From assembly GCA_037143235.1 (NCBI GenBank), contig JBAWZC010000001.1:65132-129131 (forward strand): DNA of 64,000 bases, written 5' to 3'. The notes under the pieces are model-generated. The model was not told the DNA's origin. It searched no databases and was given only the letters and a program-made list of their open reading frames with translations. Positions 5,857 to 44,589 of this stretch are shown one piece after another. Source of the stretch: Candidatus Berkelbacteria bacterium (GTDB lineage Bacteria; Patescibacteriota; UBA1384; XYA2-FULL-43-10; 1-14-0-10-43-13). The translations under genes and the position numbers were made by a program. The stretch's first letter is position 1. The number at the start of each line of letters is the position of its first letter.

Positions 5857-5922
5857 TGTCATTCCCGCGAAGGCGGGAATCTATTAAACAATTTGTGGAT
5901 TCCCGCCTTCGCGGGAATGACA
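5857..5922. repeat. TGTCAT-hairpin mini-element, two inverted copies (TGTCATTCCCGCGAAGGCGGGAATC ... GATTCCCGCCTTCGCGGGAATGACA) with 16-nt spacer
   Basis: Perfect 25-nt inverted pair, each arm itself a GC hairpin with GAAG loop; same unit recurs at 44558, 23713, 27737, 28032. Confidence 0.85.
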
Positions 5923-5953
5923 GACTATTTAACTGTTTCTTGATTATCGGGTA

Positions 5954-21616: not shown

Positions 21617-22870
21617 TCATCTTCGTAGTCCGTCGGTAATCTTATCCATTATACTACCAACCACACCTTCTTCACCAGCCAAATCAATCGCCAGATTGGC
21701 CAACCCCATCGGCGTGATATCCTGTGCACCAGAGAGCTTGCCAACCTCATCGACGACAGTTGAAACATGTTCAGGCGAGACAAAATCAATCTTCGGATGC
21801 TTGGCAAAAGGCAATCGCTTGCTCCACTCCCTCTTCTCCAGATAATCTTTTATCTCTGGCAGGAGTGATCCGCCGCCACACAACATAATTTTGGATGGCA
21901 ACAAATCAACTTGATTGAACTCTTCGAGAGCAAGTTCAACTCCAGAGAGCCAAACGTCAGAGACATTTTCCAAAGCATCGCTAACTTTTTTTTGCTCTTT
22001 TTCGTCTTCGATCTCGCCCTGAGAATATTTCAGTTTCAATCTTTCGGCGTCGGCAAAAGTCAACTCCAAAGCGTCAGCAATGGCTTTGGTAAAAACTCGT
22101 CCGCCAATTGCGAACATCTTTGTACCATCCAGTCCGCCAGACCGAACCACAGCGATATCGGTCGTACCACCACCAATATCAATAAAAATAGAGGAAAAAT
22201 CTGCCGAGTCGTCCATCCCCACGCACCGAGCGACGGCATATGGCTCGGCCGCCACTGCCAATAAATCAAGACCGAGATTTTCTGCTACTGTTTGCAAAGC
22301 AGATAGATGCAATACAGGCGCAAACGAGTTGTAAATACCAACCTCGACATCTTTGCCCTGAAAACCAACTGGGTTATTGACCTTAAAACCATCGATCTTC
22401 ACATCGACAATCGCCGAATTGACCAACTTCACATTTGGCTCTTCCTGCCCCGTCTCCCACGCCAAGTCGGCGCGTGTTTTTTCAAATGATTTCTCCTGAA
22501 CCTGACCAATAATATTTTTGAGTTCTTCTAGTGTGATATTTTTATCCGGATCAGCTCGATGATAATGAACGGTCGTGGTCGCACCTTTAACTAATTCGCC
22601 AGCAATCCCGATGACACACTGCTCTGGTGCCACGCCAGCCATCTGAAAGGCCTGCTCAAGCGCTTTTTCACAATTCGCCGACACTCCAGCAATATCAGTC
22701 ACATGCCCACCCTGCATGTCAGTCAGACCTTGTCGCTGTTTGCCCACACCAACCACAAACGCTTTGTTATCTTCCAAACGAAAAACTAGCACCTTAACAA
22801 ACTCGGTACCAATATCTAGAGCAATCGCATAATGTTTCTTATTTTTTCCCCAGCCGAACAAGTTCACCAC
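21617..22870 (-). CDS. ftsA: cell division protein FtsA (actin-like ATPase)
   Basis: IALDIGTEFVKV..., FIDIGGGTTDIAVV, C-terminal amphipathic tail; PilM not excluded. Confidence 0.75.
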   Translation of the reverse strand: MVNLFGWGKNKKHYAIALDIGTEFVKVLVFRLEDNKAFVVGVGKQRQGLTDMQGGHVTDIAGVSANCEKALEQAFQMAGVAPEQCVIGIAGELVKGATTTVHYHRADPDKNITLEELKNIIGQVQEKSFEKTRADLAWETGQEEPNVKLVNSAIVDVKIDGFKVNNPVGFQGKDVEVGIYNSFAPVLHLSALQTVAENLGLDLLAVAAEPYAVARCVGMDDSADFSSIFIDIGGGTTDIAVVRSGGLDGTKMFAIGGRVFTKAIADALELTFADAERLKLKYSQGEIEDEKEQKKVSDALENVSDVWLSGVELALEEFNQVDLLPSKIMLCGGGSLLPEIKDYLEKREWSKRLPFAKHPKIDFVSPEHVSTVVDEVGKLSGAQDITPMGLANLAIDLAGEEGVVGSIMDKITDGLRR

Positions 22871-22933
22871 TCCCTCACTTTCAGTATCTAAAATCTATAT
22901 TGCATTACAATATCATTGTATCACAATCGTCCT

Positions 22934-24826
22934 CTAAGATAATACTGCCTTGATACGCCGTACCCCTGCACTCGAGCTCTCTTCTTTCAAAATCTTGAAA
23001 TGACCAAGCTCACCAGTTCTGTTGGCATGGGGACCGCCACAAATCTCCTTAGAAAAATCATCGACGGTATAAACTTTAACTTTGTCGCCATATTTGGCGT
23101 CAAATACACCCATAGCACCCTGTCCTTTAGCTTCATCCACACTCATCTCTGCCATCTCTACAGGCAGGTCTTTCTCAATTTGTGCGTTCACTAGAGCTTC
23201 GACCTGTTTAATTTGTTCGACAGTCATTTTTTCAGGATAAGAAAAGTCAAATCTGAGTCTTTCTGGCGTGATGTTTGATCCTTTTTGGTAGACATTCTCA
23301 CCCAAAACGAACCGTAAAGCAGCCAACATCAAGTGAGCAGCGGTATGCAACTTCGTTGTTTCTTCTCCAGCATCGGCCAGACCACCCTTGAACATCCCCG
23401 CGGAAGCCGTACGAGACAAATCTTGGTGATTCCTTAGCATCACTTCAAAAGTTTTTCTGGTATTATTTTCTATGGGGATATTTAATCGTGTTGCCTCCTC
23501 TGCACTCAATTCATAAGGAAATCCAAAAGACTGATATAAATTGAAAAATTCTTCAGCAGTAAATTCTACTTTTTTCCACTCTTCTTCATTGCTCTTTGTC
23601 TTCATGGCGGCAATAATTTTAAACTGAAGCAGCCCTCTTGTAAGTGTTCCTCTAAATTTCTCCTCTTCTTTTTCCAACTCGAAGAGAATCATTTTTTGTT
23701 TGTCATCATTTGCTGTCATCTCGAGCGAAGTCGAGAGATCTTTTTCTGTAGATTTCTCCACCCTCTCTTCGAGTGGAGTCGAAATGACAGACCCAAAATA
23801 AACTCCGTTGTAAATCTCGAAAACTTTGCGAGCAACCTTGGCGGTAAAATTCTGTTCAATCCCCAGCTGTTGCCCCTTCACAATCGCCCGCCTGATCAAA
23901 CGACGCAAAACATAGCCTCTATCCTTATTTGAGGGCACGACCCCATCATTGATCATAAATGTGGCAGCTCGAATGTGATCAGCAATTACACGAAAAGATC
24001 TCTCGACTTCACTCGAGATGACAGAGGAAGAGCTATATTTTTTACCAGAAATACTTTCAATTTCTCCCAAAATAACCTCGAATAGATCAGTTTCGTAAAC
24101 ATTATCTCTCCCTTCGAGGTATGCCAGTAAACGCTCTAACCCACCACCAAAATCGACATTTTTTTGTTTCAAAACTTCCAGAGTACCATCAATGTTCTTA
24201 TTAAATTGCATAAAAACATTATTGCCGATTTCTACCCACTTCTTGTCGGCTGGATCATATTTCAGAGGGGCATCCCCTTCACCTGTCCAAACAAATATTT
24301 CGGTATCATGGCCACACGGACCGGTGACACCAGCAGGACCCCACCAGTTGTCTTCATAACCCAAAAACGCAATTCTCTCATCGGGGATACCGAGAGATCG
24401 CCAAATACCCGCAGCCTCCTCGTCCTTAGCAAGATCATTTGCAGAGTCACCCTGAAAACAAGTAACAGCCAGATTCTTCCGATCGATCAAAAGTTCTACC
24501 GTCAAAAATTCATAGATATTTTTGATCGCTTCTTCTTTGAAGTAATCCCCGAGTGACCAATAACCAAGCATCTCAAAAAATGTGCAATGAGTTTTGTCTC
24601 CAACCTCGTCAATATCACCCGTCCTGATGCATTTCTGAACATTACAAAGCCTCTTGCCCGCCGGATGGCCTTCCCCCATCAGATATGGCACCAGAGGGTG
24701 CATACCAGCAGTCGTAAAGAGCACTGTCGGGTCATTTTCTGGCACCAAAGAAGCAGAAGGCACCACTTGGTGCCCCTTTTCTTTGAAGAAATTGATAAAT
24801 TTTTGTCGTAGTTTTATAGAAGTCAT
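22934..24826 (-). CDS. alaS: alanyl-tRNA synthetase (short form: catalytic + editing domains, no C-Ala domain)
   Basis: N-term MTSIKLRQKFINFFKEKGHQVVPSASLVP..TTAGM; editing HxxxH (HTAAHLMLAAL), CGGPH; only 630 aa. Confidence 0.88.
   Translation of the reverse strand: MTSIKLRQKFINFFKEKGHQVVPSASLVPENDPTVLFTTAGMHPLVPYLMGEGHPAGKRLCNVQKCIRTGDIDEVGDKTHCTFFEMLGYWSLGDYFKEEAIKNIYEFLTVELLIDRKNLAVTCFQGDSANDLAKDEEAAGIWRSLGIPDERIAFLGYEDNWWGPAGVTGPCGHDTEIFVWTGEGDAPLKYDPADKKWVEIGNNVFMQFNKNIDGTLEVLKQKNVDFGGGLERLLAYLEGRDNVYETDLFEVILGEIESISGKKYSSSSVISSEVERSFRVIADHIRAATFMINDGVVPSNKDRGYVLRRLIRRAIVKGQQLGIEQNFTAKVARKVFEIYNGVYFGSVISTPLEERVEKSTEKDLSTSLEMTANDDKQKMILFELEKEEEKFRGTLTRGLLQFKIIAAMKTKSNEEEWKKVEFTAEEFFNLYQSFGFPYELSAEEATRLNIPIENNTRKTFEVMLRNHQDLSRTASAGMFKGGLADAGEETTKLHTAAHLMLAALRFVLGENVYQKGSNITPERLRFDFSYPEKMTVEQIKQVEALVNAQIEKDLPVEMAEMSVDEAKGQGAMGVFDAKYGDKVKVYTVDDFSKEICGGPHANRTGELGHFKILKEESSSAGVRRIKAVLS
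23701..23789. repeat. TGTCAT-hairpin mini-element (inverted pair) inserted in-frame inside alaS
   Basis: TGTCATCTCGAGCGAAGTCGAGAGATC ... CTCTCTTCGAGTGGAGTCGAAATGACA; encodes linker peptide ...VISTPLEERVEKSTEKDLSTSLEMT... Confidence 0.7.
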
Positions 24827-24980
24827 AAATGATACATTTATTTATTCATTTAGCCATTTAGTCATTTAATCATTTATTGAATATTTGATTATTGGTTATT
24901 AACTGATTATTGTCTCTTGGTTATTGTTTCTTGTCTGTTTAGGTCAATTAGAATAATTAAAGCAATTAGATTAATTCTAC
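24827..24980. repeat. ~150-nt intergenic repeat family copy (catttagYcatttaatcat...ttggttattaactgattattgtctcttggttattgt...ttaggtcaattagaataatta..attagattaattcta)
   Basis: Homologous copies at 19472-19838 (interrupted by R1/R2), 48900-49030, 37681-37850 (inverted) and partial at 380-425. Confidence 0.8.
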
Positions 24981-25664
24981 TTATTTCTTGAGATCCAGTC
25001 CACCAAATATAGTATCAAAAATTCTCATCCATACAAGTCCCTTAACATCAGCCACAGAGTTTTCCTGCGGAGTCACGATATTGACCGTAGGAACAAGGCC
25101 AAGCTCCTTGGGATACATCGTCTCATAAACCTTCATATAGTTTTTTACTCTACGAACATAACTGACGGTTTCACTCTTACTGTTGCTACCGATGATCTTC
25201 TCAAAAATATTTCTCGACACCCAGCCATCAACAGTTCCGCCTCCGGCGTTGTATGCTGCCAGCGCTTTATCGAAATCGCCATTGTATTTTACCAACATAT
25301 CGTGAAGATGAGCTGCGCCGAACTCAATCGATGTTTCAGGATCAAAGATGTTGTAGTTAGGATACCTACCAGTCTCTTTGGCCATCGTCTTGGCAGTACT
25401 CGGCATAAATTGCATAATACCCTGAGCCCCAGCCCCCGACTTTGCATTTGGATTGAAACGACTTTCTTGTAAGATCACTGCTGCGACTAATGCAGGTGAT
25501 ACATCCCACTTATTTGAATATTTGACGATCAAATCCTCATATTTAAGTGGGTATACTTCATCAGCCAACATTCCCGGCAACCAAAAATAGCCCCCTATTA
25601 AAAAGGCAAAAGCAATTCCCAAAAATATAAATAATTTTATTTGCTTGCGCTTCTTTGTCATCAT
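24981..25664 (-). CDS. lytic transglycosylase (SLT domain) with N-terminal TM anchor
   Basis: VILQESRFNPNAKSGAGAQGIMQFMPSTAK catalytic motif (ES...GLMQ-like). Confidence 0.8.
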   Translation of the reverse strand: MMTKKRKQIKLFIFLGIAFAFLIGGYFWLPGMLADEVYPLKYEDLIVKYSNKWDVSPALVAAVILQESRFNPNAKSGAGAQGIMQFMPSTAKTMAKETGRYPNYNIFDPETSIEFGAAHLHDMLVKYNGDFDKALAAYNAGGGTVDGWVSRNIFEKIIGSNSKSETVSYVRRVKNYMKVYETMYPKELGLVPTVNIVTPQENSVADVKGLVWMRIFDTIFGGLDLKK

Positions 25665-25713
25665 CTAAATTATAACACAAAAGATATTTCAAAGTAAAAA
25701 TGATTGGGATTAC

Positions 25714-25742
25714 ACCCCCTCCTACCTCAGGGAGGGGGTGCC
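25714..25742. terminator. GC-rich hairpin (cccctcctacctcagggagggggtg)
   Basis: Perfect 9-bp GC stem in AT-rich context at 3' end of 25722-26099 ORF. Confidence 0.55.
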
Positions 25743-26099
25743 GATTTGTAGCAATGACAGGATTTGTTGCGCCACTGGCGCAATCTTGATCGTGGCATCG
25801 ACCCGGCATAAGCAAGAAATCTTGTCGGGGTCAGCTTCAATTCTGATTTGGTAAATTGAAGCAACCAAATCACCGAAGATTGACTCATCATTAGCCATCT
25901 TCCTTCCGATCAGGAACGAATGGTTAATCGAACGTGCGATCTTCGCATTCAAAAACAAAATTTCATTCGTCCCAGATGGCTTTACGCCACCAAAACAAGT
26001 CAATACTTGCCTGTCTTTTGCCTCCACTAGGTGGAGATAAATCAGGCCATCATAAACAACGACGCCATAAACACCGTGATACACTGTTCGTATCTCCAC
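25722..26099 (-). CDS. hypothetical protein (125 aa)
   Basis: ORF only; upstream neighbour of the heliorhodopsin gene, same strand. Confidence 0.45.
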   Translation of the reverse strand: MEIRTVYHGVYGVVVYDGLIYLHLVEAKDRQVLTCFGGVKPSGTNEILFLNAKIARSINHSFLIGRKMANDESIFGDLVASIYQIRIEADPDKISCLCRVDATIKIAPVAQQILSLLQIGTPSLR

Positions 26100-26193
26100 T
26101 CTACACCTCCTTTATTTTGTCCCTTGATCGGACAAAATACGACCAGACGACACTATGAAATCGTCCCACTTCACAATATCCAACTTTCTCTAA

Positions 26194-26952
26194 CTATGGT
26201 CTCAAAGTGCCGGCAAAAACCTGCCAAGCCAAAAGTGATTTCGCTACGAGAGACAAGACGATATAGACCCACTCACCGTAGATATAATTCTTCCATTTGC
26301 CAACCTTTTTGTACTGCAAAACTTGGTTGACCGCGAAAATATTGAAGAAGACAAACATAGAAAAGAAAATCCAATAGACAAATGTTGGCGGGTTGCTGAC
26401 ACTACCAGGACTCCACAAATACAAACCGATTGCCAACCATGGGGCGATACCAGCGATACAACCGAAAATAAACGCTGTCCAATTGGTCTTTTGCGTCGAC
26501 TGATTGTGCAGCTCCATCATCCAACCAAAGAGAATCATCGAAACATTGGCAAAGAAAATACCGATCAAGGCCGCGCTATCTGTAATTCCAACCAATTCAG
26601 AGATAACAAGGATCATTACCGACGAACTGAAGGCATACTCGATCCAACGAGCATAGTTTGCACCTTTGGCCAAATTTTTATTGTACCAACCATTAATACC
26701 TGGCAAGGAAATCAACAAATGAGCCAGAGAAGACATAAATAAAAATGTTGCAATCATCGGTGCCAACGGAACCTCAAACCAAGTCTTGGGATCAGGCACC
26801 AGGGTTTGCGTTGCTGGATTGAACTTCAAAAAAGAATTTACAACTGGTACTTTCATATCTGTAGACAGTACCATCATCGCTACGCCCTGCACAAAATGCA
26901 GACAGGACATAAAAATATTAAACTTCCGCAAGCGCACGAACTCTTTTTCCAC
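26194..26952 (-). CDS. heliorhodopsin (7-TM retinal protein with inverted topology)
   Basis: 252 aa; near-colinear with prototype HeR 48C12: RWIEYAFSSSVMILVI, NVSMILFGW, FGCIAGIAPW, FFNIFA..QYKKVGKWKNY..GEWVYIVLSLVAKSLLAWQVFAGTL (Schiff-base Lys in SLVAK). Confidence 0.85.
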   Translation of the reverse strand: MEKEFVRLRKFNIFMSCLHFVQGVAMMVLSTDMKVPVVNSFLKFNPATQTLVPDPKTWFEVPLAPMIATFLFMSSLAHLLISLPGINGWYNKNLAKGANYARWIEYAFSSSVMILVISELVGITDSAALIGIFFANVSMILFGWMMELHNQSTQKTNWTAFIFGCIAGIAPWLAIGLYLWSPGSVSNPPTFVYWIFFSMFVFFNIFAVNQVLQYKKVGKWKNYIYGEWVYIVLSLVAKSLLAWQVFAGTLRP

Positions 26953-26989
26953 TTGGACTCCTTTGATTAAAAAGTAATTAATTATTGTT

Positions 26990-27607
26990 TTATCTGCTTA
27001 TACAGGTACCGACAACTGGATATTTCGTAATAGCCGAAAGGGCATGTCTGGTAAAAAAATCATTTGTCAGATCTTGCCCGGCAGCGTGTCCGTAATGATA
27101 ACCATTTTTGAAAACAGAAGAGAGATCGTAAACAGTCCCATTGACGGCCAGATAAGCCGCTACGCCGTTTTTACCATTATACTGCGCCAATTGAGACGCT
27201 GTAAATGTTCGCGTGGTGCTAGAACTTGATATTTGAGATGTTGAAGAAGTCGATGTGTCAGAGGCAACACTGACGACCTGACCACCCTCCTCACTCTCTC
27301 CTTTGCCATAATACCGGTCAACATAAACAAAACCGATGACAAAAGTCATGTATACCAACAATAAAACTATTTTGGAGAATATATTCCAAAAGGACCACCG
27401 CTTCAATGCCAGATGAATAGCAAAAGAAGTATGAATAACGAAAGAAATCAACAGCATGTAAGTCAAAATATTGTTATGAATCGTCGTCGCCCACGAAGCA
27501 TCTATGATCCCCTTCGTCATACCATAACCGCTTATAATATAAAGAAAGAGTGTGATCAACAACACCCAAGCCGCGATGCGATCAAGTTTAATTAACATTT
27601 TCATCAT
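26990..27607 (-). CDS. membrane protein with C-terminal cytochrome b5-like heme/steroid-binding domain
   Basis: 3-4 N-terminal TMs, Ser/Thr linker, then LAQYNGKNGVAAYLAVNGTVYDLS...GYHYGHAAGQDLT (cyt-b5-like fold). Confidence 0.6.
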   Translation of the reverse strand: MMKMLIKLDRIAAWVLLITLFLYIISGYGMTKGIIDASWATTIHNNILTYMLLISFVIHTSFAIHLALKRWSFWNIFSKIVLLLVYMTFVIGFVYVDRYYGKGESEEGGQVVSVASDTSTSSTSQISSSSTTRTFTASQLAQYNGKNGVAAYLAVNGTVYDLSSVFKNGYHYGHAAGQDLTNDFFTRHALSAITKYPVVGTCISR

Positions 27608-27614
27608 AATATGA

Positions 27615-27700
27615 AAACTCCTCAGCTTCTCAGTTTGTCAACTTTCTAACTTATCAGCTTAAACACTTACTGGCTTATCAGCTTAAACTCTTACCAGTTT
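27615..27700. repeat. intergenic repeat family 'AGCTTAAACACTTACTAGCTTATCAGCTT' (tandem units)
   Basis: Similar arrays at 28085-28175 and 50560-50655. Confidence 0.75.
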
Positions 27701-27708
27701 ACTCGCTT

Positions 27709-28057
27709 CTGTCATCTCGAGCCCCCCCCTTTTTTTTGTCATCTCGAGCTTGTCGAGAGATCTTTCAACTCTGGATTCATCTCACAAATCAGAGCTAATT
27801 TCTTTGACCGACTCCATCTTTTTAACTGTTTTTCTCTTTCTAATATTACTTTAACATCATTTGATAATTCGAAATATACTAATTTATGGCATCTGTATTT
27901 CTTTGTAAATCCATCGACTAAATTGTTCTTATGCTCATATACTCTTCGGACAAGATCATTGGTCATGCCGATATACAACACATTACTAAAACTGGCCACA
28001 ATATAAACATAATATGTTTTATCTTGCATAAGATTTCTCCACAAGGTCGAAATGACA
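27709..28057 (-). mobile_element. mini mobile element: GIY-YIG endonuclease gene bracketed by inverted TGTCAT-hairpin repeats (27737-27762 and 28032-28057)
   Basis: TGTCATCTCGAGCTTGTCGAGAGATC on the 3' side and its relative GATTTCTCCACAAGGTCGAAATGACA (inverted) immediately 5' of the ORF start; solo half-copy plus poly(C)/poly(T) at 27709-27737. Confidence 0.6.
27739..28029 (-). CDS. GIY-YIG homing endonuclease-like protein
   Basis: Start MQDKTYYVYIVAS...LYIGMTNDLVRRVYEH (GIY..YIG, R, E motif); ORF-track N-extension is repeat-derived. Confidence 0.8.
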   Translation of the reverse strand: MQDKTYYVYIVASFSNVLYIGMTNDLVRRVYEHKNNLVDGFTKKYRCHKLVYFELSNDVKVILEREKQLKRWSRSKKLALICEMNPELKDLSTSSR

Positions 28058-28173
28058 GGAGTGTGATGGTCCAAACAACAGAAAAACCGGATGAAACGAC
28101 ACTGATTCAGCTAACTGGCTTTCTGGTATAAACAATTATTAGCTTAAACACTTACTAGCTTATCAGCTTGTTT

Positions 28174-29364
28174 CTATTCATATCTCAAAACATCCAAAGA
28201 CTTGACTCTGACTGCCCTTCTGGCCGGATAAATGCCAGTCAAAATACCAATCAATACCGAAATAATGACAATCGCAATGATAAAATATGTAGGGTAATAG
28301 AAAATTGAGACAGCTTCCCCTCCCATACTGGTCGCATAATGATTCAAAACCATATTTACCGCATTTCCTGATAACACGCCCAAAATTAGACCAAGCACAC
28401 CACCCGTCACACCCAGCAAGACGGACTCAGTCAGAAAAATGCTATTAATATCATGGCTCCTCATCCCGAGCATTTTCATCAGCGCAATCTCCTTAATTCT
28501 CTCAAGCAAGGAGATTGTTAAAGTGTTGAACATGCCCAAAACCGCCACAATCAGAGTGATCAAACCAAATGCTGCCAATATAGCACGAAATATGCCGAAA
28601 ACTTGGTTAATTTGAGCAACGGTATCACCGACATATTGAGTTTTTAACCCCATATTTTCAATCTGTCTTCTGATTTCAGGCACTTTATCTTTGGCCAAGA
28701 CCTCAACTTTAAACTGGCCAAACGATGTCACTCCCATCGCTCGAAGATTGTTTAGATTGGTATAAACCTTCATTGACGATTCATCGTTTGTCACGCCAAC
28801 CACTTTATATTTCTGGTCGGAGATTTGCACATTTTCAGATTTATCTACCAATTCTTTGGGGATGACAATATCGAACGAGATCTCCTTCCCCATTACCTCG
28901 CTTTCGCTAATATTTAAAAATTTTACAAAAGCAGTATTGATAATCATTTCATTGTCTTTACCAACCAGAGAAGCTCCTTTGGCTATCTTAATACCAGATT
29001 TATCTAAATAGGCCTTGTCGGCTCCGTAAAAGGAAACGTCCACATTCCTTTCGCCAATTTCTGATTTTGCCCCTACGGTGACCAATCCATAAACATTTCC
29101 GACACCACCAATCCCTTTAATATTTGAGGCCGTTGTGTCAGTCAATTTAATAATTTGTGAGTTCCCCGTGCCAACATCCACCAATTTAAAAGCATCACCA
29201 CTCGTTACCTCGTTTGTCACCAGCCGTTCGATACCAAAAGCAAATGCGACCAAAAATACAATCGCCGAGATACCGATGACAACACCCATCAAAGTCAATA
29301 TTGCTCTCAGGCGGTGCAGTTTCAGGTTACGAAAGGCAAATTTCAATATAAATATCTTATCCAT
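28174..29364 (-). CDS. ABC transporter permease, FtsX/MacB-like
   Basis: N-terminal TM, large periplasmic domain, C-terminal 3-TM FtsX fold. Confidence 0.8.
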   Translation of the reverse strand: MDKIFILKFAFRNLKLHRLRAILTLMGVVIGISAIVFLVAFAFGIERLVTNEVTSGDAFKLVDVGTGNSQIIKLTDTTASNIKGIGGVGNVYGLVTVGAKSEIGERNVDVSFYGADKAYLDKSGIKIAKGASLVGKDNEMIINTAFVKFLNISESEVMGKEISFDIVIPKELVDKSENVQISDQKYKVVGVTNDESSMKVYTNLNNLRAMGVTSFGQFKVEVLAKDKVPEIRRQIENMGLKTQYVGDTVAQINQVFGIFRAILAAFGLITLIVAVLGMFNTLTISLLERIKEIALMKMLGMRSHDINSIFLTESVLLGVTGGVLGLILGVLSGNAVNMVLNHYATSMGGEAVSIFYYPTYFIIAIVIISVLIGILTGIYPARRAVRVKSLDVLRYE

Positions 29365-43448: not shown

Positions 43449-44459
43449 ATGACCACAGATTTTTACCAATATCTCGAAAGTATGACATCGCTTCGTCGCA
43501 AACAGATGAAAACGGCTATTTTTGTCAATCTGATCGACCAAGTTTCGGAGATTACCACCCTCTCAAAATTTGAACGAGAAAAAATTTCCTCCGAACTCGA
43601 GATCACCCCGTTTACTCTCGAAAAAGAACAAAAATCTACTGACGGCTCGACCAAATGGGCACTAAAACTTGCTGACGGCCACATCATCGAGACAGTCCTG
43701 CTGGAATTTCGCGACGGTCGCAACACCGTCTGCATCTCCTCACAGGTTGGTTGTGCCTCAGGCTGCCTCTTTTGTGCCACCGGACAGCTCGGCTTTACTC
43801 GCAATCTGACCAGTTGGGAGATCGTCAGTCAGGTTCTATTTGCCGCACGATATTTGAAAAAGAAAAAAGCTGAAGACTTCCGCCTGACCAATGTCGTCTT
43901 CATGGGCATGGGCGAGCCACTCCTGAACTTGGATAATGTGCTATTTGCTATCAAAGAATTAAACGATCCCGACTATTTCAATCTTGGCCGCCGCCATATG
44001 ACAGTTTCCACCTGTGGTGTAATCAACAATTTACAGAAATTCATCGAGGCTGATACCGGCACAACTCTGGCCATTAGCTTGCACGCGCCAAATCAAGCAC
44101 TTCGAGAGAAACTAATGCCGATTGCTCGTGCTCATCCGCTCGACCAGCTGATCAAAACTCTAGATAATTTTGTTCGCCAGACCAAGAAACGTGTCAGCTA
44201 CGAATATCTCCTCTTGGACGGGATCAATGATAGCGAAAAAGAAGCCAACGAACTAGTCTCGCTCTTTCGCCAGAGGCTTGTCTTTATCAATCTCATCACC
44301 TTCAATCCGATCGGCAGCACCAACTTCAAGCCGACGCCACGAGATCGAGCCGACCGTTTCAAATCAATTTTAGAAAAAAATAATATCCCTGTGACCGTCC
44401 GTGTCAGCCTCGGCGATGAAATCTCTGCCGCCTGCGGCCAACTCGCAGGGGAAAAATAA
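43449..44459 (+). CDS. rlmN: 23S rRNA/tRNA adenine C2-methyltransferase RlmN (radical SAM)
   Basis: CASGCLFCATG radical-SAM cluster motif, C-terminal GDEISAACGQL. Confidence 0.88.
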   Translation: MTTDFYQYLESMTSLRRKQMKTAIFVNLIDQVSEITTLSKFEREKISSELEITPFTLEKEQKSTDGSTKWALKLADGHIIETVLLEFRDGRNTVCISSQVGCASGCLFCATGQLGFTRNLTSWEIVSQVLFAARYLKKKKAEDFRLTNVVFMGMGEPLLNLDNVLFAIKELNDPDYFNLGRRHMTVSTCGVINNLQKFIEADTGTTLAISLHAPNQALREKLMPIARAHPLDQLIKTLDNFVRQTKKRVSYEYLLLDGINDSEKEANELVSLFRQRLVFINLITFNPIGSTNFKPTPRDRADRFKSILEKNNIPVTVRVSLGDEISAACGQLAGEK

Positions 44460-44557: not shown

Positions 44558-44589
44558 TGTCATTCCCGCGCAGGCGGGAATCCACAAAT
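44558..44589. repeat. solo TGTCAT-hairpin unit (TGTCATTCCCGCGCAGGCGGGAATCCACAAAT) between convergent rlmN and membrane gene
   Basis: matches arm + CACAAAT tail of 5857-5922 element; probably also acts as terminator. Confidence 0.8.

Follow-up and report, generated by a model that had tools for sequence, protein, structure and literature searches.

A TGTCAT-tagged hairpin dimer in frame within alaS of a Candidatus Berkelbacteria bacterium resembles the flanks of a nearby GIY-YIG nuclease gene

Small bacterial repeats with a terminal CGTC or TGTC tag have been grouped as CGTC-tagged repetitive extragenic palindromes (CGTC-REPs), which include dRS3 of Neisseria and the Rickettsia palindromic elements (RPEs) RPE-4 and RPE-6 (Di Nocera 2013, PMC3733652). 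Besides the CGTC/TGTC tag, they have a stem of 8-9 bp that opens with AT, a loop of 4-5 nt and a CCA-type tail. They occur mostly as inverted dimers, which encode 20-30 amino acids when they lie in frame inside genes, tRNA synthetase genes being among the hosts; a single unit and a dimer within one open reading frame (ORF) have also been described, and no dedicated enzyme had been found for them in 2013 (PMC3733652). Here we describe an inverted dimer of TGTCAT-tagged hairpins that lies in frame within alaS, the gene for alanyl-tRNA synthetase (AlaRS), in 64,000 nucleotides of a Candidatus Berkelbacteria bacterium genome (contig JBAWZC010000001.1, positions 65,132 to 129,131; hereafter the window), and we compare it with a small nuclease gene of the same window that is flanked by similar units.

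The Ssn-related motifs (SRMs), a name given to repeats of this kind in 2025, include the Neisseria Transformation Sequence (NTS; Chenal et al. 2025, Nat Commun, PMC11893778). Ssn are small single-domain GIY-YIG proteins (cd10448, ~94 residues) encoded between SRM units; they bind the tag together with its hairpin only as single-stranded DNA (ssDNA), and their cleavage site is situated a few nucleotides upstream of the tag (PMC11893778). The NTS-ssnA-NTS architecture resembles an insertion sequence (IS) according to the same authors, and in Neisseria the NTS is rarely intragenic (2%; PMC11893778). In our analysis, positions 23701-23789 of the window probably hold a non-autonomous inverted dimer of SRM/CGTC-REP hairpins, which was inserted in alaS, was kept there because it is in frame, free of stop codons and situated in a surface loop, and corresponds to the neighbouring ssnA-like cassette without its ORF.

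The initial annotation had seen an in-frame, inverted-repeat hairpin element at this place and had quoted the pair TGTCATCTCGAGCGAAGTCGAGAGATC and CTCTCTTCGAGTGGAGTCGAAATGACA. Both sequences are present, at 23714-23740 (+) and 23763-23789 (+), and the gene (minus) strand is read through them in frame, as claimed, within the 630-residue AlaRS ORF (...GSVISTPLEERVEKSTEKDLSTSLEMTANDD... / VISTPLEERVEKSTEKDLSTSLEMT). The description as an inverted pair stood in so far as inverted TGTCAT units are indeed found. However, the arms, taken as 27-mers, are complementary at just 15/27 positions (manual count), the actual terminal inverted repeat covers 11-12 nt (CTGTCATCTCGA/TCGAAATGACAG, 92%), and each arm is a small hairpin unit of its own, with the TGTCAT tag at its outer end and of a different type than the other arm. 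Measured from tag to tag, with the tags pointing outward, the dimer spans 76 nt (23714-23789); the earlier starting point, 23701, coincides with an extra partial tag, and the dimer proper begins at 23714. The loop of the left arm holds a 16-nt nested mini-hairpin, and a slightly longer stretch around this arm (23744-23792) folded as DNA at -8.3 kcal/mol (z=-2.5). With 27-30 added residues, the element shows both the inverted-dimer organisation and the coding length of 20-30 residues known from CGTC-REPs.

Comparison with the best 120 AlaRS homologs, all of the Patescibacteria type and ~575-730 residues long, showed that the place of the dimer (site 2, query residues 339-380) is occupied by 15 residues in 66/120 and by 12 residues in 24/120 sequences, against 42 in the query. 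Because the segment is so much shorter in relatives (12-15 versus 42 residues), the alignment identifies the site-2 segment as a true insertion relative to the orthologs. A codon alignment with P0004, the closest insert-free ortholog, gave 30 extra query codons at site 2, in agreement with the length of ~90 nt, a multiple of three, proposed at first, and 7-8 extra codons at a second position (site 1, query residues 262-284; modal length 16 residues, query 23). Site 1 holds a solo type-2 unit 210 nt upstream of the dimer, which differs from 23714-23740 by one mismatch and lies in the opposite orientation (0 expected by chance). A single 310-nt element bounded by this near-perfect inverted pair (24023/23714) was considered and rejected, as the intervening DNA encodes the conserved AlaRS core (FRVIADH...GYVLRRLIRRA). 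P0004-P0008 (63-68% identity) have neither insert, and the nearest relatives, P0002, P0003 and P0013 (71% identity), have both. The sequences of these three insert-bearing relatives stem from independent JGI and ENA assemblies, which rules out an assembly artefact; in addition, the identical AlaRS protein has been deposited under a Candidatus Berkelbacteria metagenome-assembled genome (MAG).

The units are not restricted to alaS. Six exact copies of TGTCATYTCGA were found in the 64 kb, three in alaS and three flanking one GIY-YIG gene (27.7-28.1 kb), and TGTCAT followed by a perfect hairpin occurred nine times, compared to a mean of 1.1 and a maximum of 4 in shuffled sequences. Since the same units thus recur elsewhere in the window above chance, the feature is not a chance palindrome. 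Three types were distinguished: type 1, TGTCATTCCCGCG(A/C)AGGCGGGAATC, at 5857(+), 5922(-) and 44558(+), all intergenic; type 2, with the consensus TGTCATCTCGAG-N5/6-TCGAGAGATC; and type 3, with the consensus TGTCATTTCGAC...GTGGAGAAATC. A regular-expression scan of the window with the published degenerate SRM motif, HGTCWYN(0-2)YYVSBRHN(0-5)WNVSBRGN(0-2)RNCYNB, matched only the three type-1 units (0.1 matches expected in shuffles). These canonical units also have the CGTC-REP traits (8-bp stem from AT, 4-nt loop, CCA tail, within the published 8-9 bp and 4-5 nt), and the inverted dimer at 5857-5922 folded as DNA at -8.9 kcal/mol (z=-4.4). The alaS units lie outside these limits, with perfect stems of 5-6 bp, loops of 5-6 nt or a 16-nt nested hairpin, and the tail CTT. 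The three alaS units and the two units flanking the nuclease gene all carry the TGTCAT tag (HGTCWY) at their outer end. Hairpins are predicted next to the tags but are weak in type 2, with energies from -4.2 to -4.9 kcal/mol and z-scores from -0.3 to -2.5 (-4.9 kcal/mol and z=-2.5 for the unit at 27737-27765), and AT...AT closure of the type-2 hairpin requires a 2-nt bulge (manual reading).

That a palindrome arose by coincidence in a native, lineage-specific linker, with no mobile element involved, would agree with the similar sequence and length of the segment in P0002, P0003 and P0013. Yet 90/120 orthologs have only 12-15 residues there, so that the orthologs in general do not show the linker of equivalent length that might have refuted the ~25-30 extra residues foreseen at the outset, and the same DNA units occur outside alaS beside a nuclease gene as well as in unrelated genomes. 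We regard such a coincidence as hardly credible.

The nuclease gene lies 4 kb from the dimer. Its product matched a single domain, PF01541 (E=2.3e-14, covering positions 2-76 of the 78 in the model), and a PHROGs search with the ORF returned just weak generic GIY-YIG matches. Size, fold family and architecture point to a putative member of the Ssn family, and we therefore refer to the gene as ssnA-like. Its ATG follows 1 nt after the left hairpin unit, which contains a Shine-Dalgarno-like GGAG at a distance of 7 nt from this start codon. The TGA stop is part of the ATGACA tag of the right unit. As a separate observation, the GGAG is situated in the 3' half of the left unit (28031-28045), so that an mRNA hairpin could gate translation of the nuclease.

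Comparing the alaS dimer with this cassette revealed the same two unit types, which also agree in their left/right order and in orientation. Both have the blocks CTGTCATTTCGAC and GTGGAGAAATC(T) on the left and AAAGATCTCTCGAC and CTCGAGATGACA on the right, where the loops differ (TTCG in the alaS arm versus AAG in the 3' unit of the nuclease gene); the TGTCATTTCGAC...GTGGAGAAATCT unit of the left arm is likewise found directly 5' of the GIY-YIG gene start. The ends of the dimer thus align with the flanks of the cassette, a 6-nt spacer replaces the ORF, and the dimer has no coding capacity of its own, as expected of a MITE (miniature inverted-repeat transposable element). These same asymmetric ends, in the same order, indicate that the dimer is an SRM-ssnA-SRM cassette minus its ORF, and the two would relate to each other as a MITE does to its IS. 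The segment AAAGATCTC of the dimer was first read as a remnant of the C-terminal ssnA codons (KDL); alternatively, it may be the tail of the right unit, read through by the ssnA ORF.

A further shared feature is found outside the right-hand unit, whose tag-proximal half is duplicated at a distance of a few to ~20 nt from the element at the ssnA-like gene (27710-27737), at the alaS dimer (23701-23713), downstream of another ssnA homolog (L006) and in the alaS of P0040 (L088). At the 3' end of ssnA, for example, the duplication reads CTCGAGATGACA-A7G8-CTCGAGATGACA, and its form in alaS is GATGACA-GCAAAT-GATGACA; P0002 carries only one tag where the query has the duplicated tag 23701-23707. Such duplicated end-tags may be the footprint of an insertion or copying mechanism. 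In the surroundings of the cassette, a tandem array with a 16-nt period (TTATCAGCTTAAACAC-like; seven overlapping 34-nt copies) was observed at 27627-27708 and at 28120-28169, that is, on both sides. The array is split by ~410 nt, which suggests that the array was there first and that the cassette entered it together with ~60 nt 5' of the left unit.

In order to see how ssnA-like genes are flanked elsewhere, we scanned one genome per species and found 580 relatives across phyla, of which the best 80 (51-76% identical) were retrieved and their flanks scored with a generic tag-plus-hairpin detector, the published motif being too narrow. At these best 80 of 580 loci, tagged hairpins were detected in forward orientation upstream in 31, reversed downstream in 31, and on both sides in 23. 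The tags are conserved, and the stems vary yet remain complementary (ATTCCCGC/GCGGGAAT, ATCCTGAA/TTCAGGAT, ATTGCCCGG/CCGGGCAAT and others). The published SRM motif was present within 300 nt in only 7/80 loci, indicating that it is narrower than the family. Canonical NTS-like units, for example TGTCATTCCCGCGAAAGCGGGAATCCAC, were seen beside some homologs in this range of identity, and ssnA homologs of the candidate phyla radiation (CPR) carry the same type-3 left unit as our locus. At the ssnA locus of one Saccharibacteria MAG (L013), the upstream unit agrees at 28/28 positions with the left dimer arm in the alaS of P0035, another CPR organism; the right arm in P0035 is in turn 26/27 identical to that of the query.

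Positions, strands and sequences of the individual features are collected in Table 1.

Table 1. Features of the alaS locus, the ssnA-like cassette and the canonical units, in window positions.
Feature	Positions	Strand	Description	Basis
Left arm of alaS dimer	23750-23789	-	type 3, TGTCATTTCGAC[TCCACTCGAAGAGAGG]GTGGAGAAATCT, translated VISTPLEERVEKS	
Spacer between arms	23744-23749	-	ACAGAA, 6 nt; the nuclease ORF occupies the equivalent place in the full cassette	
Right arm of alaS dimer	23714-23743	+ (tag strand)	type 2, TGTCATCTCGAGCGAAGTCGAGAGATCTTT; gene strand reads KDLSTSLEMT	
Partial duplicated tag	23701-23707	+	TGTCATC, 13 nt outside right arm; gene strand reads ..NDDK	
Solo unit at site 1 of alaS	23997-24023	-	type 2, in frame, TGTCATCTCGAGTGAAGTCGAGAGATC = VISSEVERS, just before the FRVIADH motif	
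alaS	22934-24826	-	alanyl-tRNA synthetase, 630 residues, without C-Ala domain	ORF and Pfam
ssnA-like gene	27739-28029	-	96-residue single-domain GIY-YIG nuclease	
Left (5') flanking unit of ssnA-like gene	28031-28057	-	type 3, TGTCATTTCGACCTTGTGGAGAAATCT	
Right (3') flanking unit of ssnA-like gene	27737-27765	+	type 2, TGTCATCTCGAGCTTGTCGAGAGATCTTT	
Duplicated partial tag beside right flanking unit	27710-27736	+	TGTCATCTCGAGC, then C8 run and T run into right unit	
Inverted dimer of canonical units	5857-5922	.	TGTCATTCCCGCGAAGGCGGGAATC, tags outward, intergenic, adjoining secA start	
Solo canonical unit	44558-44585	+	TGTCATTCCCGCGCAGGCGGGAATCCAC, ~100 nt 3' of ORF ending at 44459	

At the protein level, the alaS product matched PF01411 (E=1.4e-115) and PF07973 (tRNA_SAD; E=4.3e-16) and retains all invariant columns of an alignment of 82 sequences. 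An AlphaFold2 model built on this alignment had a mean predicted local distance difference test score (pLDDT) of 89.4, with values <50 only at residues 346-370 and 474-484. Residues 346-370 fall inside the site-2 insert, which forms a loop between helices 328-338 and 372-407 in the model and is read as a predicted disordered surface loop of 27-30 residues. A surface loop, as foreseen at the outset, is thus predicted, although not where it had been assumed. The insert had been assigned to the linker between the aminoacylation and editing domains, whereas alignment to Aquifex AlaRS (1RIQ) places it beyond the catalytic core, in a loop of the helical tRNA-recognition domain; residues 474-484, just before the C-terminal region with the tRNA_SAD match, are more likely to represent the interdomain linker. 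Site 1 is the loop immediately before the conserved FRVIADH helix, where pLDDT dips to 73.

A segment in such a position might also be removed before the protein matures, as an intron, an intein or by translational bypass. GIY-YIG nucleases are classic intron homing endonucleases, and the ends of the element pair strongly as RNA. On the other hand, 76-90 nt is far below the size of a self-splicing intron and 30 residues below that of an intein, a scan of 22000-29000 against Rfam gave no match at E<=1, and the inserts are in frame and stop-free in all lineages examined, in two frames, as expected of a translated insert under selection. Removal therefore has next to no probability in our judgement, and we proceed with a translated dimer.

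To follow the insert through other CPR lineages, the DNA of seven insert-bearing alaS genes was read. In 7/7 a forward tag and a reverse tag, some of them partly decayed, mark the two ends of the site-2 insert, while the stems differ. The inserts of the query, P0002 and P0035 consist of type 3 plus type 2; that of P0015 of ATTCCCGCG plus a type-3 half-unit; and those of P0031, P0040 and P0032 contain ATTCCAGCC, ATCCCCGA / ATTCCCGTG and ATTCTGAGC, respectively. At this same site the tag is translated in two frames, as VI(S/P) or (S/C/R)H. P0015 has dimers at both sites, and P0113 has ~70 extra residues at site 1, which comprise several units and contain CHPELVSGSP, VIPTAVEES and VIPTEAEES. Repeat-derived inserts in some CPR AlaRS (P0113, P0015, P0029) are much larger than those considered here. 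A different, well-conserved 16-residue insert (GDKTDEEYIA.DKQCWVD.RK) was seen at site 1 of 13 homologs that form one subgroup, for example P0032, P0027 and P0030; its DNA in P0032 contains the strings GATGACA and GGTGACA, and the insert may be an old fixed repeat or a native extension.

The two AlaRS loops could be targeted by preference, they could be sites at which selection tolerates an insertion, or a resident unit could attract later ones; extra partial tags beside dimers (query 23701-7; P0040) fit the last of these options. They would also fit the nested or sequential events expected if each loop had been entered once, early in this CPR clade, with many precise losses and turnover by gene conversion and nested insertion thereafter. 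This history, which is compatible with the dimer being a gene-less cassette, would also account for the many inserts that end in ...(Q/N)DD(K/T), the reverse tag in one frame, and REPs are known targets of further insertion (PMC3733652). However, the 21 site-2 carriers require at least 15 state changes by parsimony on a neighbour-joining tree computed without the insert regions (a rough estimate, as the tree is not robust), two tag frames, VI. and.H., occur at the same site, and the closest insert-free genes show no scar. We consider a single ancient entry per loop rather unlikely. A wider reading, held tentatively, is that SRM-ssnA-SRM is an autonomous ssDNA mobile element, whose GIY-YIG nuclease mobilises CGTC-REPs and whose MITEs are the left-plus-right dimers, that the alaS loops of Patescibacteria have been targeted repeatedly, directly or beside a resident unit, and that the duplicated tags (23701-7; 27710-22; L006; P0040) are its footprints.

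Third-codon-position identity between the query and P0002 was 0.42 gene-wide, but rose to 0.90 over the 10 codons of the site-1 unit and to 0.70 over the 23 aligned codons of the site-2 insert. Values of 0.73-0.80 were also reached in a few other windows of 15 codons, and the contrast between insert and gene is suggestive, not decisive. The pattern fits constraint at the DNA level, gene conversion from other copies or re-insertion; selection on the peptide fits less well. The third-position values, the fold of the whole element as RNA (-29.9 kcal/mol, z=-2.4), the sharing of the insert between lineages whose AlaRS are just 71% identical and the occurrence of such elements in the same two loops of many CPR lineages would all be in line with exaptation, in which the dimer or its 27-30-residue peptide is functional (in mRNA stability or translation pausing, as a site of Ssn action or as a protein-interaction loop specific to the lineage) and kept by selection. 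In contrast, the model predicts disorder for the peptide (pLDDT <50), insert sequences, stems and reading frames vary by lineage at the same site, P0002 has a decayed left tag (TGTTAT) and a different right junction, the majority of orthologs have no insert, and SsnA does not interact with RNA (PMC11893778). Exaptation thus appears improbable. We instead favour a mechanism in which the local Ssn protein would recognise the variant units and mobilise or copy them via a single-strand intermediate, the alaS copies being selfish or neutral passengers rather than adaptations.

Several observations weigh against the interpretation of the dimer as a gene-less, Ssn-related cassette. Purely neutral passengers would not show third-position conservation without gene conversion, recent re-insertion or a constraint on the DNA. 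None of the alaS or ssnA-flanking units (types 2 and 3) matches the published SRM motif, the type-2 units form just 5-6-bp stems, and the two alaS type-2 copies fold no better than shuffled sequences (-4.2 kcal/mol, z about -0.3 to -0.5). An NCBIfam scan assigned the GIY-YIG ORF to no family, and a sequence search of the PDB with it returned only 1ZG2 (UPF0213) at E=0.04. The dimer is flanked by no direct repeat of the kind left by target-site duplication, just by the partial tag 23701-7. No same-species empty allele was found, and the closest empty site belongs to an ortholog of 68% identity, a divergence at which the junction cannot be placed to the nucleotide. To our knowledge, mobility of an SRM-ssnA-SRM cassette has never been demonstrated, and it is put forward only as a hypothesis in PMC11893778. 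Our literature searches found no relevant report on COG2827/UPF0213/YhbQ, nothing that directly links GIY-YIG proteins with CPR bacteria or MITEs, and none on the translated-repeat peptides or the canonical hairpin sequence.

In-frame REP and RPE insertions, dimers encoding 20-30 residues, tRNA synthetase genes as hosts and, since 2025, the link between Ssn and hairpins are already known. The initial view that a palindromic repeat inside an essential gene is unusual therefore has to be qualified, as in-frame CGTC-REP/RPE dimers, including those in tRNA synthetase genes, have been published (PMC3733652). New here are the host, a member of the CPR, two variants of the unit that the published motif does not cover and the asymmetric left/right match of a gene-less dimer to the local ssnA cassette; the recurrent occupation of two AlaRS loops and the duplicated terminal tags, as possible mechanistic footprints, may be added. 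Because the locus pairs a gene-bearing cassette with a gene-less dimer of the same asymmetric ends, the question of Ssn mobility becomes more directly testable, and since the dimer sits in an essential, well-aligned gene, filled and empty sites can be compared over many lineages. The Ssn/SRM system is thereby extended to CPR bacteria and to hairpin variants missed by the published motif. If the cassette is indeed an autonomous ssDNA element, the window provides a natural series of filled sites on how a GIY-YIG ssDNA nuclease moves DNA, and a demonstration of Ssn-driven mobility would make the finding more interesting. Strings such as VIS/VIP..., CHSE..., ...LEMT and ...QDDK in CPR proteins are translated repeats and not native sequence, a point of importance for annotation, alignment and structure prediction.

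Some further observations concern the repeats and the surroundings of the locus. The dimer beside secA (5857-5925) is translated in the ORF list as MSFPRRRESIKQFVDSRLRGNDR; such translated-repeat peptides can contaminate gene calls. GC skew is negative over the whole 64 kb (cumulative -2.2), and all genes examined between 19.8 and 29.4 kb lie on the minus strand. Between alaS and the cassette, a full-length heliorhodopsin gene (26194-26952, minus strand; PF18761, E=2.3e-103) adjoins the gene at 26990-27607, whose product is a membrane protein that has a cytochrome b5-like domain.

Among known systems, REP/BIME-RAYT (bacterial interspersed mosaic elements and REP-associated tyrosine transposases) and IS200/IS605 with its MITE-like derivatives resemble the locus in having a small nuclease gene between hairpin repeats, which there are recognised as ssDNA, and in the scattering of gene-less pairs, but they use an HUH Y1 transposase fold instead of GIY-YIG. 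Transposition of IS200/IS605 has been demonstrated, unlike that of Ssn cassettes. The RPE-1 type, which Ogata et al. are said to have described in 2000, is reportedly palindromic selfish DNA that lies in frame in housekeeping genes and is translated as extra surface segments compatible with function. The alaS dimer would likewise be an in-frame, selfish palindromic insert, translated as a surface segment of this kind; RPE-1, at about 100-150 bp, is the longer of the two and comes from another sequence family, and we know of no nuclease gene for it. With CGTC-REPs, the locus shares the terminal TGTC tag, the AT-opening stem, the inverted dimer, the in-frame intragenic copy, the combination of unit and dimer in one ORF and the tRNA synthetase host. 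It differs from them in that a specific nuclease gene has flanks to which the arms of the dimer correspond, and in that the alaS stems and loops (5-6 bp perfect; 5-6 nt or 16 nt nested) fit none of the four families described (stems of 8-9 bp, loops of 4-5 nt). The closest resemblance in architecture is to SRM/Ssn (PMC11893778): a TGTCAT (HGTCWY) tag precedes a predicted hairpin and a possible ATC tail, a small GIY-YIG gene (96 residues here, ~94 there) has units on both sides with the tags outward, and canonical NTS-like units, 26/28 identical to CGTCATTCCCGCGMAVGCGGGAATCYRG, are present in the window. Unlike the NTS in Neisseria, three of the ~9 units of the window lie inside one essential gene. 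The locus further differs from SRM/Ssn in its Patescibacteria (CPR) host, a group absent from PMC11893778, in the stems of the alaS and ssnA-flanking units, CTCGA/TCGAG and ATTTC..GAAAT with an internal loop, which fall outside the published motif, and in a cassette whose left and right units are unlike each other.

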